A stretch of 64,000 nucleotides of DNA from a virus. Where the stretch lies: the IMG/VR virus record IMGVR_UViG_3300049435_000061, positions 10,530-74,529 of that record, one strand, 5' to 3'. Position 1 is the stretch's first letter; each line of letters starts with the position of its first letter. Of this stretch, positions 7,925 to 16,455 are shown one piece after another. The notes under the pieces were generated by a model. That model had not been told where the DNA came from. It saw nothing but the letters and a program-made list of their open reading frames with translations, and ran no database searches. The translations under genes were made by a program, and so were the position numbers.

Positions 7925-8617
7925 CTACGGTACCCGGCACACGCCGTTGCTCATCAACGGACGCAGATCGACCGGCCTGTTGGGATCAGGATTTTTGATG
8001 ATGGTCTCACTAGAGCCGTTGGGTAGAGCGTTCTCACATTGAGCCACTTGTTGATTGGTACCTGACGGCTCAAGCCACAAATCCACATGGTTGCCCGAAA
8101 AGTTGCAGCCACAAAAATCTTCCATGATGTAGTACCGCTGCAACTTTGGTACATAGATGCGGGTACCGGGCGGGAAAACGCTGGTGTCCTCGGTGGCGAA
8201 GGTCTGCGGGTCTTGATATGTCCCCGTGCCCCCTGCCTGCTGATGTCGTGGCGGCGAACCAGGGTAGGCGATGGCACGCGACCCTGGCGGATCATTGTCG
8301 GGTGCCGAATACCAGGTGATCCGACCGGACAACGTCGTGCCGCTCGACGGCACCGTGGTCGTCGTCGTTGTCGTCGGTACCGTGGTCGTCGTGGTCGTTG
8401 TCGACGGCGTCGTGGTGGTTGTCGTGGTAGTGGTTGACGGCCGCGTGGTCGACGTCGTGGTGGTTGTTGACGGCGGCGTGGTCGGCGTTGGTGTGGCGCA
8501 CAGGCGCGGGAACCAAATGCAGTACCAGGGTGCAGCACTGGCAGATGGTGTGCACAACACCAACCCAACCGCGACAACAATCGCCGTGAACGCGGCAAGC
8601 AACCGTGCCCTACTCAC
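7925..8617 (-). CDS. secreted 3D/double-psi-barrel domain protein with Thr-rich linker
   Basis: signal peptide, poly-T linker, ITWY..DNDPPGS, PGTRIYVP, EDFCG, HVDLW. Confidence 0.7.
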   Translation of the reverse strand: MSRARLLAAFTAIVVAVGLVLCTPSASAAPWYCIWFPRLCATPTPTTPPSTTTTTSTTRPSTTTTTTTTTPSTTTTTTTVPTTTTTTTVPSSGTTLSGRITWYSAPDNDPPGSRAIAYPGSPPRHQQAGGTGTYQDPQTFATEDTSVFPPGTRIYVPKLQRYYIMEDFCGCNFSGNHVDLWLEPSGTNQQVAQCENALPNGSSETIIKNPDPNRPVDLRPLMSNGVCRVP

Positions 8618-9480
8618 AGCTTGAAAATCTTGTTAACGCCGGTATCCCAGGTGACGCTGATGTTGCCGCCGTTTGGTGTGACCGGCAGACCGGCCCCGGT
8701 GGCGGGTGCGTCTGCGCGGGAACCGGCTGTGACGATGGCAGCCAAAGCAGTGACCGTCACGGTGCGGTCACCCGCATTGGCCAGGGCGGACAGTGTGGCG
8801 CTGGCACCGTTAGAAAATGTCAGCACAGTGCCGTTGGGGATACCGGCTGACAGACGTTCCACGGCGATGGTGGTGGCCGATGCTGCCGCCTGCGCGGCGC
8901 AGGTGACGATGTGGCGTCCGTCGATGAGTGCCACCATGCGGGAGGTTGAGGGGGTGCCGGTGTCCCGATAGAGGCCAACAGCTTCCACGGTGGCACCCGA
9001 CACGGTCGGGAATGTCAGGTTGCCTGCGCTGGCCACGCCAGAGGTCACACCGGGTGTGGCGATGGCCTGTCCGGTGCCGACGTTGCAGGCGTCGAAGTCG
9101 TCCCAGTTGTCACCGGCTGCGGACGGCCCGAGGCACACCGCATAGCCGCCGCTGGTGTAGGCGGCTGAACCGACAACGTTGGTGCCGATGATCGGGTCTG
9201 TCAGCTCCATTGTGTTGGCGGCGACGTTGGCGATTTTCCACAAGCCGTTGGCTGCCAGGTTGCCGCCGACACCGCCGATCACAACGAGGTCGCCGTTGGC
9301 GAAACCGTGTGCGGTGGCGGTGATGACGATGGGTGTAGCATTGGTCGCCGCCGTGACCGCTTTCACGCCCGTGTCGGCGGTGTTGAGGTCCATCAGCGCG
9401 CCTTTGAACGCCTGCGTATCCCAGTCGAGTGTTCCATCCAGAAAGCCTTCACGGCCTTTCTCGAACAGTGCGTTGGCCAT
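8614..9480 (-). CDS. conserved phage structural protein with internal insertions
   Basis: MANALF.KGRE.FL.G..DW...LPVTPNGG.I...WD.G.NKIFKL termini. Confidence 0.7.
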   Translation of the reverse strand: MANALFEKGREGFLDGTLDWDTQAFKGALMDLNTADTGVKAVTAATNATPIVITATAHGFANGDLVVIGGVGGNLAANGLWKIANVAANTMELTDPIIGTNVVGSAAYTSGGYAVCLGPSAAGDNWDDFDACNVGTGQAIATPGVTSGVASAGNLTFPTVSGATVEAVGLYRDTGTPSTSRMVALIDGRHIVTCAAQAAASATTIAVERLSAGIPNGTVLTFSNGASATLSALANAGDRTVTVTALAAIVTAGSRADAPATGAGLPVTPNGGNISVTWDTGVNKIFKL

Positions 9481-9762
9481 CTATGTCTCCGAAATTAGTA
9501 GGATCAGGGTTTGATCGTCTTGCTCCCCGTTGGCCGTGGTGATGTGGCAGGGGATCAAGTATTCGACGCCAGCTGTGGCACCGGCTGCGGACAGGCGCAC
9601 AACCGATGCCGTATCGGTGTGCGACTCTGAAATCTTGGTGATACCGGCAGGCGGTGTCCACACTGACGTCGCAATAGTGTCGTCGGTCGACAGGTCAGCT
9701 GACCAGTCGATGTCGAAATCTCGGACTGCGTTGCGGTCCATCACTTTTGCGAACACCGCCAC
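9481..9762 (-). CDS. fibre-tail adaptor-like protein
   Basis: D..A..DF.IDW...L...DTI..S.W; AGGAGG RBS. Confidence 0.65.
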   Translation of the reverse strand: MAVFAKVMDRNAVRDFDIDWSADLSTDDTIATSVWTPPAGITKISESHTDTASVVRLSAAGATAGVEYLIPCHITTANGEQDDQTLILLISET

Positions 9763-9776
9763 CGGAATCTTTCCTC

Positions 9777-9962
9777 CTATTTCACGGGGTCGAGCAGGCG
9801 GGTTGCCCACTCCCCCACTGTTTCTGTGGGTGCCGCCACCGCGTGTTTGCAGTGCAGAAACGGCGGGTCACCCGGCTCGCTGTGCATCCAAACGGTCTGG
9901 CCGTCCGCATCTTTCAGCAGAAGCAGCCGAACCCCACAGCCTTTGTTTTTGCACCGTTTCAC
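9777..9962 (-). CDS. small Cys/His protein
   Basis: GTGA overlap; C-x4-C, H-x8-HC. Confidence 0.55.
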   Translation of the reverse strand: MKRCKNKGCGVRLLLLKDADGQTVWMHSEPGDPPFLHCKHAVAAPTETVGEWATRLLDPVK

Positions 9963-10783
9963 GGCACTAGCGCGTCCGGCACTGGTGGGTTGACCACCGG
10001 ATTGTCAGCTGGCGGAACAACACCGGGAAGCGGGTCACCGTAGAAATTGTTGGTGACATTGTTCTCATCGACGTAGCTGCCGGTGATCGGCCCGTTCGGC
10101 ACGTTGTGCTGCGGCGGAATGTCTTGCACCCCGTCACCATTAGTGTCTGCACCGTTGATGGTGGACAGCTGCGTAATCTCAGCCCACGGCGGCTGACCAC
10201 CGTTGGACCCGTACGCATCGTTGACGTCGTTGCGGTTCTCACTGTTGGGCACCACCGGAAGGTTCGCCGGGACACCGATAACCGCAGCGCCGACATTGAT
10301 GCCCACACCAATCGGACCTGGTGTCGGCCCGAAAACGCCAGGGTCACCCCAGGCGTTGCCGTTGGTGATCAGGCGGGTGTTGCTACCCGGCTGGTCAGCG
10401 CCGACATCACTGGCGACCTGAATCGCCGGGGCGTCGCCGTAGGAGAACCCTTCGATCACGCACCGACTACCATTTGCACAATGCTGATCCCAGGCGGCTC
10501 GCGTGGCGGCAACCCCTTGATTGAAGGCATCGTTGGGTGTGGTGCTGCCCGAGAACGGTGCAAAGTCGCCGTCACAGGTGCCGTAGGCAACCGGTACCGG
10601 GTCACCCTGCAAGCGGCCTTGGGCCGCAATAGTGTTGGCCAGCCCTTGACTTGTGCAGTCGGTGTTGCCACCGACGATGATGTGGGTGTCGGCACTGGCG
10701 AAGCCTGAACCGAACAGCAGGCACGCCAGTGCGGCGAGGCCCGCCAGTAGTACGCCGAAACCGGCGCGTCTGACTGCGTTCAC
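9959..10783 (-). CDS. secreted cutinase/PE-PPE-like serine hydrolase (possible lysin B analogue)
   Basis: signal peptide ending ASA; GFSYG nucleophile elbow. Confidence 0.7.
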   Translation of the reverse strand: MNAVRRAGFGVLLAGLAALACLLFGSGFASADTHIIVGGNTDCTSQGLANTIAAQGRLQGDPVPVAYGTCDGDFAPFSGSTTPNDAFNQGVAATRAAWDQHCANGSRCVIEGFSYGDAPAIQVASDVGADQPGSNTRLITNGNAWGDPGVFGPTPGPIGVGINVGAAVIGVPANLPVVPNSENRNDVNDAYGSNGGQPPWAEITQLSTINGADTNGDGVQDIPPQHNVPNGPITGSYVDENNVTNNFYGDPLPGVVPPADNPVVNPPVPDALVP

Positions 10784-10841
10784 TGTGTTTTCCTTACCTT
10801 TAACTGCTCCACCCGACGTGGGCGGATGATCTGTGCACACC

Positions 10842-10878
10842 AAAAAGCCCGACCCCTCTTTGTGTGAAGGCCGGGCTT
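10842..10878 (-). terminator. intrinsic terminator after lysin genes
   Basis: AAGCCCG/CGGGCTT stem followed by T-run on minus strand. Confidence 0.6.
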
Positions 10879-10893
10879 GGGTGTTGCTGCGGT

Positions 10894-11226
10894 TTAACCT
10901 GTTTGGTTCATCCGCTTCTGTACAGACTTGAAGATTCCCACGGCGAACGCATCGTTGGCCGGAAGTTTGCCTGCCGCACCAAGGTTCACCGTTTCCACCG
11001 AGAACGGGTCGTGACATTCCACCGCAAGCCAGAAGATGAGGTGGTCGTAGGCGTGGCCGTTGGTGAACAACGCCATACCGGTGGTGTCGTCGACACCGTC
11101 GTTGGTGCGGCGACACGTGGCACGCGAAATCCACTTGCCACCCTGAGTGATTCCGGGGATGTCGCCGATGTTTTTGTACGACGTTGTCTTGTCGTACATT
11201 TCGTTGAACATGTCTTGGTTGCTCAT
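10894..11226 (-). CDS. stand-alone lysin A C-terminal (cell-wall-binding-like) domain
   Basis: SRA..R....VDD..GM.L..NG..Y resembles mycobacteriophage LysA C-termini; follows two catalytic lysin genes. Confidence 0.6.
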   Translation of the reverse strand: MSNQDMFNEMYDKTTSYKNIGDIPGITQGGKWISRATCRRTNDGVDDTTGMALFTNGHAYDHLIFWLAVECHDPFSVETVNLGAAGKLPANDAFAVGIFKSVQKRMNQTG

Positions 11227-11243
11227 TTGACTGCCTTTCGTTT

Positions 11244-11849
11244 TCAGATGTACAGATCGGGTACGCCGGGGATCAACAGCTCACCAACGACGACAGCGTT
11301 GGCCCATGCGTAGCCTTTCGGCGGGATCAGGGTGGCGGTCTGGTCGAAAGCCTCCCAGTATCCGTAGGGCCGAAAGCCGCTGTCGGCCACCCACACTGCG
11401 CCACCAGGAAAGTCGGTGTCGTAGCCCATGATGGCGCGGTAGTGAAAGATGGTGCCGCCGCCGTATGCCGGGTCCGGTGATCCCATCACGCCGCGTGGAT
11501 AGTTGGATGACGGCGCAACAATGTTGTTGCTCACCCCGTACCCGGCGTCAATCGAATGAAGGATGTGTTGCCACAGATGGTTTTTCTGAACTTCGCTCAT
11601 CGGGTCTTGTTCGCACAGAACAGGTTCGAAGTGAGCGTCGGGCAGATAGCGGTTGAGCACCGGGGTAATCATTCCCACCCAGGCGGTGCCGTCTTGGGTG
11701 GTGCCGATTTGGTTAGCCAGGTCTTGTTCGCTCACAACGATTCCGCGCGATTGCAGAATCATCTGTGTGGACGCCGGACCGCACCAGAAGTAGGTGTCCT
11801 GTTTGTCGAATGCTGGGTTGCGGTCGTAGTCGAGAATCTTTTGGGTCAT
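11244..11849 (-). CDS. lysin A, C39-like peptidase subunit
   Basis: QDTYFWCGPAS, HY..IMGYD, VADSGF, LIPPKGYA. Confidence 0.85.
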   Translation of the reverse strand: MTQKILDYDRNPAFDKQDTYFWCGPASTQMILQSRGIVVSEQDLANQIGTTQDGTAWVGMITPVLNRYLPDAHFEPVLCEQDPMSEVQKNHLWQHILHSIDAGYGVSNNIVAPSSNYPRGVMGSPDPAYGGGTIFHYRAIMGYDTDFPGGAVWVADSGFRPYGYWEAFDQTATLIPPKGYAWANAVVVGELLIPGVPDLYI

Positions 11850-12478
11850 GCGGGCAGCCCTTCCACGCCGGGGATCAGCAGCGGGCTGCCCATGCCTAAC
11901 GCCGCCGCCAGATCGGCTTTGGTACCGCGAAACGCGTTGACATCCAACGCCAAACCAGCGACCAGGCCGTCATCACCGTATTGGAGTATGCCGACGTCTT
12001 TGCCGCCGTAGCCGTTCCAGTTGGGGTGGTTGTCACCAGGGTAGGTGTGGGTGTATTCGGACCGCACCAACAAACCGGGGATGTCCCGAAGGGTCGGCTT
12101 ACCAATCCGCTCCCAATACCAGTCGGGTAGGTAGGACACCACTGTCGGTATGCCGAGAGCCGCGAACGCATTCACGCAAGCCCAGTAGTTGTTGAGGTCA
12201 CCGGAGCCGTCCTCGAAGTCCAGCATCACCCGTTCACCACCGCCGTTGTCACGGAAGTTGCGGGCCTGGGCATTCGGGTCGTCAGTTTTGACGTAGTGAT
12301 AACCGACGCACAACAGCCCGCGCTGTGCACACCAATCGCGTGTTCGTGGCCAGAACTTGTCCTTAAACCCTGACCCTTCACTGACCTTGGCGAAAACGAA
12401 AGCGTAGCCCTCGTCGGCAACCCGGTCGATGTTGACGGTGCCGTTGTTGTTGGAGATGTCGGGTCCGAAGATGGTCAT
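11846..12478 (-). CDS. lysin A, GH25 muramidase subunit
   Basis: GPDISNNN, AKVSEG, GYHY, MLDFE, LQY, DVNAFRG. Confidence 0.88.
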   Translation of the reverse strand: MTIFGPDISNNNGTVNIDRVADEGYAFVFAKVSEGSGFKDKFWPRTRDWCAQRGLLCVGYHYVKTDDPNAQARNFRDNGGGERVMLDFEDGSGDLNNYWACVNAFAALGIPTVVSYLPDWYWERIGKPTLRDIPGLLVRSEYTHTYPGDNHPNWNGYGGKDVGILQYGDDGLVAGLALDVNAFRGTKADLAAALGMGSPLLIPGVEGLPA

Positions 12479-13401
12479 TAAATGATCCTCTCGACTGTGG
12501 CCGTCTCCACCTTCAAAATGTTTGTGGCGCTCGACGTTGCCCACTGTGCGGTCAGTTTCACCACGGGTGTAGCGGCGGTGGTGTCAACGACTGCCGTAGT
12601 GGCGATGGTGGTGGTAAGGATGACCGCCGTCGCAAACTCGATACGCCCGAAACCGTTGGCAACGTATGTGCCGCTGGCACCGACTGTGCGAACGGTGATG
12701 TCCACTTCCAGGTTGAAGGCGACCGGGCCAGCTGCGGTGCCCTGTGACGCCATCTGGAAGGTCTCGGTGCTGACGTTGGCACCCAGATATGGCCGAAACG
12801 TCAGTGTGCCGCTGGTCGCTTGTACCTGCACCGTGCCGCGCACTTTGAGGCGAAACGTTGAACCGGCCACAAGCGATCCGGTCGGGAGTGTGAACGTGAT
12901 GACAGACGTTTCGGTGGTCGACGTATTCAGGTTCACCTGAGCCGTGTTGGCCGTCAAACCACCGGCCAACTCTGGTGCGCTCGCCGCTGCCGGTGCGGCT
13001 AGCGCGGAGTAGACGCCGCCCGCCACACGCACCAGGCCGGTGCCGCTGAGAAACGTTGCACCCTCCGGTGTGCCACACATGGTGACTTTCCAGTATTTGG
13101 TGGATGACACGGTGACCACTTGCAGCACCGCCCATGAACCTGTGCGGCCCAGAACGTAGTTGGTAGTCCCGTCCTGAAATGTGTCGCTGCCACTGCGGGT
13201 GAAGGTGACTGTGTTGGTGGTGACGTCGAGCGGGTCTTTCTGGATCACCATTGAAACGCCATCGGTAAGACCGGACAATGCCGGAAGCGATGGCGTTAGG
13301 TTGCCTGCTGATGCGTTGTAGGTGTTGATCGAACCGATGGTGGGTGCGGTGGATGCCGAGATGACGGCGGCACCATTGAGTGTTGCTGCGAGCACTGACA
13401 T
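12478..13401 (-). CDS. tail fibre/minor tail protein
   Basis: T/S/G/A-rich beta protein at end of tail module. Confidence 0.65.
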   Translation of the reverse strand: MSVLAATLNGAAVISASTAPTIGSINTYNASAGNLTPSLPALSGLTDGVSMVIQKDPLDVTTNTVTFTRSGSDTFQDGTTNYVLGRTGSWAVLQVVTVSSTKYWKVTMCGTPEGATFLSGTGLVRVAGGVYSALAAPAAASAPELAGGLTANTAQVNLNTSTTETSVITFTLPTGSLVAGSTFRLKVRGTVQVQATSGTLTFRPYLGANVSTETFQMASQGTAAGPVAFNLEVDITVRTVGASGTYVANGFGRIEFATAVILTTTIATTAVVDTTAATPVVKLTAQWATSSATNILKVETATVERII

Positions 13402-13434
13402 TTTAGGTCACCCCAGCCATCCTTCGGCCTACCA

Positions 13435-13599
13435 TCAAGGCGTCACCTCATTTTTGGTTTGTGCGTACAAGCTGATGTACCCCCGTGCAATATCTGCCCA
13501 ACCCGACGCCAAGGGGCCACTGCTGTTGCCTGCTGCGGTCTTGCCCTTCGTCAAAGCGCTTTCGGCCTCGGCGCGGTACTGGTCAGCTGTTAGTGCCAT
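13435..13599 (-). CDS. 54-aa hypothetical protein
   Basis: AAGGAG RBS; MALTADQYRAEAE... Confidence 0.6.
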   Translation of the reverse strand: MALTADQYRAEAESALTKGKTAAGNSSGPLASGWADIARGYISLYAQTKNEVTP

Positions 13600-13601
13600 C
13601 G

Positions 13602-13772
13602 TTACTCCTTTGGTGCAGTTGATATTTCAGCGACGATCCGCGTCAATGCGGTCACCGCTGCCGCTGCTGCGGTCCACAGGTGGGTGATGTCGCCGTCGCG
13701 CTGCGAGTCCTCCACAGCCTGGGCAAGGGACTGCTCGATCAGTGCGCATTTGTGCTGCCGGATGAGGTCCAT
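13602..13772 (-). CDS. 56-aa hypothetical protein
   Basis: TAATG overlap; MDLIRQHKCALIEQ... Confidence 0.55.
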   Translation of the reverse strand: MDLIRQHKCALIEQSLAQAVEDSQRDGDITHLWTAAAAAVTALTRIVAEISTAPKE

Positions 13773-14068
13773 TAGGCGGTGGTGTAGCCCAACTCACGAA
13801 TGACATCATCGAGGGTGCCGTGGTCAATGTTGTCGATAGGCTGCATAATGCGCTGCTCAAAACCACCCTCGGCGTTAGATGGATAGATGAAAACGATGTC
13901 CTCGCTAGCGCTTTGAGCAATCGACTGGATATGAATTGCGACATACCCATAACTAACCCTCTCGCCACGCGGGGTAAACCGTTGCAGAGGCGGCGACAAA
14001 CTGACCAGAGTCGTCGTCGGTGGCCAGTGCTGCATTGATGTGTCGAGAATTGTTGCGGTAGATGCCAT
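13772..14068 (-). CDS. hypothetical tail-region protein
   Basis: GAGGA RBS; position after Gly-rich tail gene. Confidence 0.65.
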   Translation of the reverse strand: MASTATILDTSMQHWPPTTTLVSLSPPLQRFTPRGERVSYGYVAIHIQSIAQSASEDIVFIYPSNAEGGFEQRIMQPIDNIDHGTLDDVIRELGYTTA

Positions 14069-14086
14069 TTCAGTCCGTCCTCTTTT

Positions 14087-14941
14087 CTAGCTGATGATGT
14101 AGAGACAGCCAACGGCCCCGACACCGCCGTTGGCCACTGAGCCGGTAGCAGCTGACACGCCGCCGCCGCCACCGCCGCCGCCAGGAGCACCACCCGCACC
14201 GCCCGCAAACCCTGCGCTATTGTTGGCACCGCCGCCGCCACCGCCCGCACCGCCCGCTGGAATACCTGACGGCGCTGCCGCGCCATCCCCACCGACAGCA
14301 CCCATACCGGCCTGCCCAGACGCCGAGAATGCGCCGGGCACGCCGTCAGTGTTGGGTATCGACCAGTTGTTGGTACCGGTGAACAGTTGACCACCCATGC
14401 CGCCGTCACCGGGTGGCACCGTCACCGCGTAGGTACCGTCCGCTTTATAGACAGCGCCGACACCGGGGCTGCCTACGCAGTAGCTGCCGAAACTGGTGCT
14501 GCCGCCGAGCGTTCCACGCCCCACCGAACTGGCACCGGCACCGCCTGTGCCGATGGTGATAGCAACAGTTGACGGCAACTCATTAGTGTAGAGCTGCTGA
14601 CTTACATAGCCACCGGAACGACCGGGCAGCGGAGGAACAAACGTCGTCGTGCTGCCCTTACCACCGCCCTGCCCACCACAAATGGCAATGACAGTGATTA
14701 GGTTGTGCTCCGTCGGTGTGGGGTTGGTCCACGTTTGCGACGTATTGTATTGCGTTAACGTGCCCCCGCCCTCCAATGCTGTAATCCGATTTTGATAGTT
14801 CGCTATGACAGTTTCAACGTCTGTCGTTGAGTGCCCCAAACCGGTGAACAAGGTTGATGCTGTCGCGATTGCATCAATAGTTGCCTGATTTTTCTGAACC
14901 CATTGCAGGGCCAGATCATAGAGTCCACCACCGTCGCTCAT
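14087..14941 (-). CDS. glycine-rich minor tail protein
   Basis: GGGQGGG, GGAGG..PGGGGGGGG motifs. Confidence 0.8.
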   Translation of the reverse strand: MSDGGGLYDLALQWVQKNQATIDAIATASTLFTGLGHSTTDVETVIANYQNRITALEGGGTLTQYNTSQTWTNPTPTEHNLITVIAICGGQGGGKGSTTTFVPPLPGRSGGYVSQQLYTNELPSTVAITIGTGGAGASSVGRGTLGGSTSFGSYCVGSPGVGAVYKADGTYAVTVPPGDGGMGGQLFTGTNNWSIPNTDGVPGAFSASGQAGMGAVGGDGAAAPSGIPAGGAGGGGGGANNSAGFAGGAGGAPGGGGGGGGVSAATGSVANGGVGAVGCLYIIS

Positions 14942-16455
14942 CCTGAAGCCGTCCACTGCCGCAGTCCACCCGGTGGACAGTTCGCCAAGAATTGCTGCTC
15001 ACATCTGCCGCCCAGGCCGCGTCGTCGGTATGTCGGCCCCATCTGCGAGCCTGTTCCCGGTTCGAGATAGCCGTTCATAAACCCAACGCCGTCGAGCTGG
15101 CCGGTGAACGCACGACCTTTCGCGAAAAATGTAAACGACTTGCCCGCAACAGCTGTCGAGGTGGTGCCAGATGTCAAGTTGGTGCCGACGCCGTTGATGA
15201 AGTAGTCGAGTGACCATGCGCCGTTGGCTTTCAACCGGAGCCGGACCCCGGTACGGGTGGCCCAGCTGGTGAAGGTGTTCATCCGAATCCATAGATCGTT
15301 GAAGCCGAAGTTGATCGGAATTAGGATCGGCGACGATCCGGCTGCACCATTGAAAATGCATGACACCGTCTGGTCGTCTGTGGATGCGGTGACACCGTTT
15401 CGGAAACCAACGTAATCACCTGTGGTGGAACTTTTTACGGTGAGATTGTGGCCGTCCGGGATGGCGACAGTTACACCGGCGGTGGAGTAAAACATGCTCC
15501 ATGCCGAACCGGGGTCGACGGTGGTAATCCGCTCGAAGGCGTCACTGTCGGTGGTGCCGGTTGAAAACGCTGCCTGCAACTGTGCGATCTGTGCAGCCTG
15601 TCCAGCGAGGGCACCGGACTGGGACAGCACCGCCGCACCCATCTGGGAGTTGTTGGCCCCGAACCCGTTTAAGCCGGTGATGCCGGTCCACAGACTGTCC
15701 ACCGCCGACTGTAGGTCGGTGGAATGTTGCAACCGAATATCCGGAAGTGACTGCGGCGAAACAGCTATCGGCGTTATAGGAATGGTGGCTGTGCCGTTGT
15801 TGTTGATGCTCAATGGGAACTGTGCGTCAGTTAGGTATGAAGCTGTGCCATTGTTGTTAATGGTGATCGAAGACGTTGACGGCGACGGCGTTGCAGTGCC
15901 GTTGTTGTTGAGTATCGCCGTGGGGAAAATGCTGAGCCAGCCGGTGAGCAGGCCGAGGATTTGACCCAACGGCAAGTTCGGTATGAACGGCAGACCAACT
16001 TGTGTACCACCACCGGCAGAAAGCAAGCCGCCCAACAATGGTATCGACGTCGGAGCGGGCAGCCCTGGCGTACCAGATCCCAGATTGGTTGGGTTGCCAA
16101 GGACGCTGGTGATGTCGGTAAAAATCGAACCCAGCCCGGCCATCCCGCTCAAACCGGGTATCGCATTGGTGAACAACGCGATCAGGGTTGCGGGCGATAC
16201 GCTGCCGCCAAACAGGCCGCTCAACTGGAACAGGCCGGTACCACTGAACGGGTTGAAGAAGCCTTGCACCGCAGTAACAACCGCACGACTGATCATTTCG
16301 ATGAACTGCGCCCGCACTGCGGCGAGCTGTTCTGCACTCATCGGCGGCGCAGGGGTACTGTTCGGCGTCGTCGGGGTTACATACCCAAGCGGCGCTTCGC
16401 TGGGCATCGTCGGATCGGTGGGCCACGACTTCGACGCAAAAACAGGGAAACTCAC
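14938..16455 (-). CDS. minor tail protein
   Basis: position; C-terminal DAFER...lectin-like domain. Confidence 0.8.
   Translation of the reverse strand: MSFPVFASKSWPTDPTMPSEAPLGYVTPTTPNSTPAPPMSAEQLAAVRAQFIEMISRAVVTAVQGFFNPFSGTGLFQLSGLFGGSVSPATLIALFTNAIPGLSGMAGLGSIFTDITSVLGNPTNLGSGTPGLPAPTSIPLLGGLLSAGGGTQVGLPFIPNLPLGQILGLLTGWLSIFPTAILNNNGTATPSPSTSSITINNNGTASYLTDAQFPLSINNNGTATIPITPIAVSPQSLPDIRLQHSTDLQSAVDSLWTGITGLNGFGANNSQMGAAVLSQSGALAGQAAQIAQLQAAFSTGTTDSDAFERITTVDPGSAWSMFYSTAGVTVAIPDGHNLTVKSSTTGDYVGFRNGVTASTDDQTVSCIFNGAAGSSPILIPINFGFNDLWIRMNTFTSWATRTGVRLRLKANGAWSLDYFINGVGTNLTSGTTSTAVAGKSFTFFAKGRAFTGQLDGVGFMNGYLEPGTGSQMGPTYRRRGLGGRCEQQFLANCPPGGLRQWTASG

Follow-up and report, generated by a model that had tools for sequence, protein, structure and literature searches.

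The 64-kb stretch of viral DNA analysed here as a whole (the window; part of the 74.5-kb IMG/VR record IMGVR_UViG_3300049435_000061, with an estimated completeness of 93%) carries three tightly linked genes on its minus strand, which encode in order a GH25 muramidase, a C39-like peptidase and a protein of 110 amino acids (aa) related to lysin C-terminal domains (CTDs). The two enzymes end in the same short tail with the core LLIPGV, and this tail is conserved in relatives of both. The cassette would thus represent a lysin A split into three translationally linked genes, in which each CTD-less enzyme joins the separately made CTD non-covalently via its short C-terminal tail, and two different enzymes would share one targeting module after holin-dependent release. 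The central element of this scheme, the tail as a docking tag attaching each enzyme to the free CTD, comes from sequence comparison and is given roughly even chances. The features of the cassette are listed below by position in the window, with their basis in brackets.

11846..12478, minus strand: GH25 muramidase subunit, 210 aa, ATG at 12478 and stop at 11848-11846 (Pfam PF01183, 8e-11; phrog_3084 'endolysin', 6e-52)
11849..11887, minus strand: C-terminal tail of the GH25 subunit, SPLLIPGVEGLPA (sequence; conservation in homologues)
11858..11864, minus strand: Shine-Dalgarno-like (SD-like) GGAAGGG within the tail codons V-E-G of the GH25 gene, 8 nt upstream of the C39 ATG (sequence)
11244..11849, minus strand: C39-like (papain-fold) peptidase subunit, 201 aa (PF13529, 3e-12; phrog_1519 'endolysin', 4e-93)
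11247..11285, minus strand: C-terminal tail of the C39 subunit, GELLIPGVPDLYI (sequence; the tail type recurs in relatives)
11234..11239, minus strand: SD-like GAAAGG, 7 nt upstream of the ATG of the 110-aa gene (sequence)
10894..11226, minus strand: free-standing lysin CTD, 110 aa, mostly helical, putative cell-wall-targeting subunit (homology to fused CTDs)

That both enzymes end in an LLIPGV tail had been reported in an earlier note, made from the letters of this DNA alone, and the observation is confirmed, far beyond chance. In both the GH25 and the C39 gene, LLIPGV is located exactly 5 residues ahead of the stop. When the C-terminal 15 residues were compared across all open frames in the window with 100 or more codons (43,956 pairs), these two proteins were the sole pair with a common 6-mer. 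The DNA of the hexapeptide is identical at 16 of 18 positions between the two genes, and both differences are synonymous.

According to the earlier note, neither enzyme has a cell-wall-binding domain, and profile coverage agrees with this. The Pfam GH25 domain extends over residues 7-174 of 210 and phrog_3084 over residues 1-197, while in the second enzyme Pfam Peptidase_C39_2 covers residues 18-157 of 201 and phrog_1519 residues 1-187. Since the profiles span all but the last ~13 residues of each enzyme, there is no room for a binding domain, and only the tails are left. The start of the GH25 gene was placed at the ATG at 12478 because the close homologues (10/10) begin at the same MTIFGPDIS. 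Alignments of the homologues showed D7, D87 and E89 to be invariant in GH25, and C23 and H136 in the C39 subunit. The GH25 subunit matches lysin A in 120 phage records; for the C39-like subunit, identity to the N-terminal lysin A domain of 571 actinophage records is 53-59%.

Stand-alone GH25 proteins with the tail form 11 clusters (210-224 aa, 57-73% identity), their consensus being LLIP-[GDEN]-[VLI]-[EPD]-[GD]-[LIV]-[YLPS] followed by two residues at most. L-I-P is invariant in all 11 and the L before it nearly so; E-G is the commonest variant pair, and the linker upstream of the tail varies in both length and sequence. The same tail is found on stand-alone C39 proteins of at least 5 clusters (189-201 aa, 47-78% identity; the tail type was found in P0007, P0010, P0037, P0095, P0230 and P0231), P being replaced by S or D in two of these relatives. 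Taken over the stand-alone members of the two families together, the consensus of the tail is LLIP-[GDE]-[VLI]-[EP]-[GD]-[LI]-[YL]. The tail is confined to the CTD-less forms: fused GH25-PF27131 and C39-CTD relatives do not have it. According to the earlier note, the docking proposal would fall if homologues lacked the tail; it is conserved in both enzyme families.

The other carriers of the tail are short metagenome contigs. It is absent from the GenBank phages, IMG/VR contigs and GTDB genomes that could be read. A back-translated LLIPGxEG pattern gave 24 chance matches in IMG/VR, 0 of them at a lysin C-terminus, and tblastn with the last 21 aa of the C39 subunit gave no match in phages. No LLIPG tail was found in 80 prophage C39 loci. 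Searches for related loci with the CTD or GH25 alignment in IMG/VR, JGI metagenomes and GTDB genomes returned fused or tail-less forms only.

The third gene lies 3' of the C39 stop in the -1 frame relative to C39, behind a 17-nt spacer containing GAAAGG; an SD-like site is thus present where the earlier note had ascribed to this gene a ribosome-binding site of its own. Its product has no Pfam or PHROG match. Exhaustive phmmer searching with the 110-aa protein gave 7 representatives, of which 3 are stand-alone (106-115 aa) and 4 are fusions with the domain behind Amidase_2 or M15+GH19 enzymes. Furthermore, the search with C39 revealed the CTD fused directly behind C39 in the ~300-aa proteins P0008, P0009, P0011 and P0022. 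P0220, one of the stand-alone relatives, has matches to the C-terminal part of lysin A in 452 records of mycobacteriophages, those of clusters A, C, K and M among them. The likeness to LysA C-terminal domains noticed from the letters is thus backed by homology to fused lysin CTDs.

The AlphaFold2 (AF2) model of the 110-aa protein is helical, with a mean pLDDT of 77; residues 57-108 exceed 90, and the N-terminal third is poorly defined. Foldseek with this model returned nothing from the PDB at E <= 0.001, a VIA wide search of the PDB gave only generic helical matches (best Z 4.3), and the ESM Atlas search gave no usable match.

The comparison of split and fused forms indicates where the chain has been cut. 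In an unguided MAFFT alignment, the tail of the split C39 proteins was aligned with the HDDSVEAV linker of the fused C39-CTD relatives, and Met1 of the free CTD was placed on the Met that follows this linker. AF2 of a fused relative modelled VEAVMTTNQQRLTEVHDKMLAYPD (VEAVMTTNQ...) as one helix at residues 190-213. The alignment of the tail to the linker, taken with the single modelled helix, places the break where the first CTD helix begins, and on this model the tail corresponds to the linker and the first turns of the predicted CTD helix 1. In the fused C39-CTD relatives P0008, P0009, P0011, P0022, P0032 and P0040, a Met is located exactly at the fission point (VEAV-M-TTNQ). By analogy with the CTP1L-type lysins, this Met could be a candidate internal start giving a free CTD.

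A junction next to the tail also appears to serve in module exchange. P0135 (GH25 with the tail, 224 aa) and P0234 (GH25 with a CTD, 321 aa) are 89% identical up to a common P-x-R-[DE] junction. Past it, P0135 has the 11-residue tail and P0234 a CTD of ~110 aa of another type, which looks like a recent exchange of modules at the tag junction. The swap suggests that the tail acts as a module standing in for a covalent CTD, in partial support of the modular lysin proposed in the earlier note.

In other lineages, the tail seems to go together with a CTD of this kind, which is free or fused to the partner enzyme. The C39 protein with the tail P0007 and the free CTD P0223 are each on a contig of 2,101 bp, P0231 (C39 with the tail) and P0220 (free CTD) are each on a contig of 15,652 bp, and P0134 (GH25 with the tail) and the fused C39-CTD protein P0040 are each on a contig of 2,035 bp. 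The pairing appears to extend even to a CTD just 38% identical to that of the window. The earlier note had proposed to look for co-occurrence of the tail with a stand-alone domain; an apparent pairing with a free CTD thus exists in two other lineages, as suggested solely by the equal size of the contigs.

Several points weigh against docking on the CTD. No result obtained here shows physical contact between tail and CTD. The co-occurrence rests on coincident contig sizes and not on read sequence, and the linker helix of the fused relative was modelled with moderate confidence (pLDDT 60-77). The tail profile found no segment of the free CTD above chance. A tail-like DIPGI had been pointed out in the 110-aa protein; the motif is present, and its likeness to the tail is at the chance level (p = 0.31, profile from 16 tails against shuffled sequence). 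The tags of Mycobacterium phage Bipper and of a Williamsia prophage, described below, look like the start of their own free proteins, unlike the tail in the window. The targeting role of the CTD is likewise affected. The C-terminal domain of D29 lysin A has been reported to bind mycobacterial walls (PMC7289928); P0220 gives only a weak BLASTP match to the D29 C-terminus (E = 5e-4), and hhalign of the CTD alignment with it fell short of significance (probability 0.7%). For this CTD family, as for C1 and C2 motifs as a whole, a role in binding the wall is only a presumption in the literature (PMC3314691). Finally, the E-G codons of the GH25 tail serve a second time in the ribosome-binding site for C39, and some of the conservation may therefore be at the nucleotide level. 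The complex prediction for the C39 subunit and the 110-aa protein, each with its own alignment, had a score of 0.00 and a mark of 0.32, which speaks neither for nor against binding. The oligomeric CTD scaffold envisaged by the earlier note has no support.

The double use of these codons also belongs to an improbable explanation, in which the tail is an inter-domain linker left over from gene fission and kept mainly by the needs of stop/start overlap and ribosome binding, with no function in the protein. It agrees with the MAFFT placement of the tail on the fused relatives' linker, with the position of GGAAGGG in the V-E-G codons 8 nt upstream of the C39 start, and with E-G being the most frequent pair in the GH25 tails. 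However, the invariant part of the tail is L-L-I-P and not the residues of the E-G codons. The C39 tail has P-D in place of E-G and its ribosome-binding site is located after the stop, yet LLIPGV is still kept. Enzymes of two unrelated folds carry the same tail, which is retained at identities as low as 47%, and the synonymous nature of both differences between the two copies in the window points the same way. The linkers of the fused relatives are not conserved among themselves, unlike the tail. Judged by this conservation, the tail is more than a passive remnant.

Conservation of the tail reveals a constraint and not a partner, and the tail could be functional with a partner other than the CTD: the second enzyme, a holin, the membrane, a host factor (in export or timing), regulation of activity, or the virion tail. 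This is considered rather unlikely, though distinctly more credible than a leftover linker. The tail is hydrophobic and has no significant likeness to any CTD segment, and the neighbours of the cassette are minor-tail, major-tail-like and fibre-adaptor genes, as attachment to the virion would have it. Against such partners, the tail occupies the exact position of the covalent CTD and is restricted to the forms lacking it, and a free or partner-fused CTD seems to go with it. Both enzymes are orthologous to endolysin domains, and lysis genes inside the tail-gene region are already known in Gordonia phages of clusters CV and CZ (PMC5559632).

The layout of the genes admits one more explanation, namely that ATC-CCC-GGC in the tail codons is a -1 ribosomal slip site that fuses GH25-C39 and C39-CTD and so restores some multi-domain lysin A. 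Both downstream genes are in the -1 frame, and from a point within each tail up to the following ATG this frame contains no stop (11244-11969 and 10894-11300, minus strand), at least 40 codons being open before the C39 start and exactly 18, counted from the first tail codon, before the CTD start. However, the canonical X-XXY-YYZ heptamer is absent from both tails, and overlaps such as the ATGA joining the GH25 stop to the C39 start, like short open off-frames, are common in DNA of ~60% GC. Homologues with Ser or Asp for Pro break the C-run, yet their hydrophobic pattern is retained, as is the spacing from the stop. Slippage is thus held to be very improbable.

Docking of tailed enzymes on a free CTD can be compared with several known systems, among them that of Bipper (KU728633). 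Its gp32 and gp33 both end in the 15-aa tail QDWQPVLDYL[QT]GRT[LI] (locus L144, 2784-4444) and are followed by a free 147-aa protein (gp34), lysin B and a holin. Genes 32-34 are annotated as 'lysin A glycosidase / amidase / peptidase domain'. No Pfam domain was assigned to gp34. It has matches among the small free proteins encoded in the Williamsia and L088 cassettes, which makes a free C-terminal domain more probable than the annotated peptidase. As in the window, there are three adjacent lysin A genes, with a shared tail on two catalytic proteins and a small third protein lacking a Pfam match. Unlike the window, the enzymes are GH19-like and 'amidase', the tail is unrelated, and the free protein belongs to a different family with a tail-like N-terminus; lysin B follows the three lysin A genes. 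No paper describing the tail of Bipper was found in the literature.

In the prophage of Williamsia muralis SA024 (NZ_JAHVCV010000002.1; locus L091, 2324-5513), three enzymes, namely Amidase_2 (199 aa), C39 (196 aa) and DUF4185 (~336 aa), end in [TA]W[ND]L[IV]x[KR]EL[VT]G and are followed by a free 139-aa protein. The latter contains LVWDLTRGLPG, and an HNH-like open reading frame (ORF) lies between the amidase and C39 genes. In Nocardia prophages, the end of a stand-alone C39 protein resembles the helix after the GH25 domain of the next gene. The gp19 (C39) and gp20 (GH25) proteins of Gordonia phage Bunnybear have 45 residues of the C-terminal domain in common at 71% identity. The cassette resembles this two-gene split lysin A of Gordonia phages (PMC5559632, PMC9671378) in having C39 and GH25 as separate adjacent genes with a shared C-terminal segment; the significance of the split is unknown according to these papers. 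The order in Bunnybear is C39 followed by GH25, whereas here GH25 precedes C39. Furthermore, the segment shared in Bunnybear is half of a CTD whose full form is fused to GH25, whereas here ~11 aa are shared and the CTD is a third gene.

The canonical mycobacteriophage lysin A (PMC3314691) is built of the same blocks, with an N5/C39-like peptidase, GH25 and a CTD marked 'cell wall binding?', but it forms one polypeptide in the order peptidase-glycosidase-CTD, whereas the window has three ORFs split by stops in the order GH25-C39-CTD. As in PlyC of streptococcal phage C1 (PMC4848087, PMC4607406), the catalytic and binding parts are encoded separately, their assembly being a matter of inference in the present case. 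PlyC differs in its single catalytic chain, which combines two enzyme domains with a helical docking domain, and in its binding subunit, a proven octameric PlyCB ring; fold searches of the PDB with the CTD model gave no clear match of any kind, PlyC included. In CTP1L, LysIME-EF1 and LysP7951 (PMC4777826, PMC7098653, PMC9430671), a free binding-domain polypeptide exists alongside the catalytic chain and multimerises. In lysins of the CTP1L type, translation of this free cell-wall-binding domain begins at an internal in-frame start, and the full-length chain retains a copy of it, whereas here the CTD is encoded by a gene of its own, in a different frame, and both enzymes lack a binding domain.

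The term cellulosome-like, used in the earlier note, is apt for the logic of a common C-terminal tag serving one scaffold and does not extend to the features of dockerins and cohesins. Dockerins have duplicated Ca-binding loops within ~70 aa, and cohesins are beta-sandwiches, whereas the tag here has ~11-13 aa and the AF2 model of its putative partner is helical.

The region around the cassette (8614-16455, minus strand) has lysis genes amid tail genes: minor tail proteins are encoded upstream, and a fibre-tail adaptor-like gene (PF23148) and a major-tail-like gene downstream. No holin candidate adjoining the cassette was seen in this region. The product of the gene after the CTD (9959-10723, minus strand) begins with a signal-peptide-like segment and has a GFSYG (G-x-S-x-G) motif; Pfam, PHROG, PDB and phage searches gave no match to it. 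Being at the usual place of lysin B, it may be a candidate novel esterase. In a further predicted secreted protein (7925-8617, minus strand), which has no PHROG match, a long stretch is rich in Thr and Pro and the C-terminal part is globular.

The whole stretch is present in one soil metagenome run, possibly the one it came from, while two further soil runs have only fragments of 246-260 bp. An identical 246-bp contig covering 11188-11433, the junction of the C39 tail and the CTD start, comes from a second soil metagenome study (run X2), and a 260-bp contig with two differences, covering 12232-12491, from a third (run X3). GenBank phages yielded no match to the cassette by megablast or to the CTD by tblastn. 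The lysin is that of an uncultured soil actinophage, whose host most likely belongs to the Mycobacterium/Gordonia/Rhodococcus/Nocardia group.

A three-gene lysin A is already present in GenBank annotation, that of Bipper, while a shared C-terminal tag as a general feature appears to be undescribed; no paper on such shared tails of split lysins was found in the literature. It is suggested, tentatively and at somewhat less than even chances, that LLIPGxEGLY belongs to a set of portable C-terminal tags, unrelated to one another, in the phages of mycolic-acid bacteria, with W-x-x-[IV]-x-x-x-L-x-G (Bipper, Williamsia, Nocardia) and the Bunnybear type of 45 aa as further members. An enzyme bearing such a tag would be recruited to a shared separate targeting domain, the tag-domain pairs being specific and the enzymes being swapped by recombination at the tag junction; if true, this would mean a plug-and-play holoenzyme design for endolysins. 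To our knowledge, endolysins are mostly seen as single chains with their own binding domain, with PlyC and the complexes of internal-start isoforms as exceptions. If the 11-residue tail suffices to join different enzymes to one free targeting domain, it would explain both the tolerance and the recurrence of split lysin A genes in actinophages, provide a mechanism for rapid shuffling of lysin modules, and offer a very small natural tag-receptor pair for multi-enzyme lysins against mycolata.

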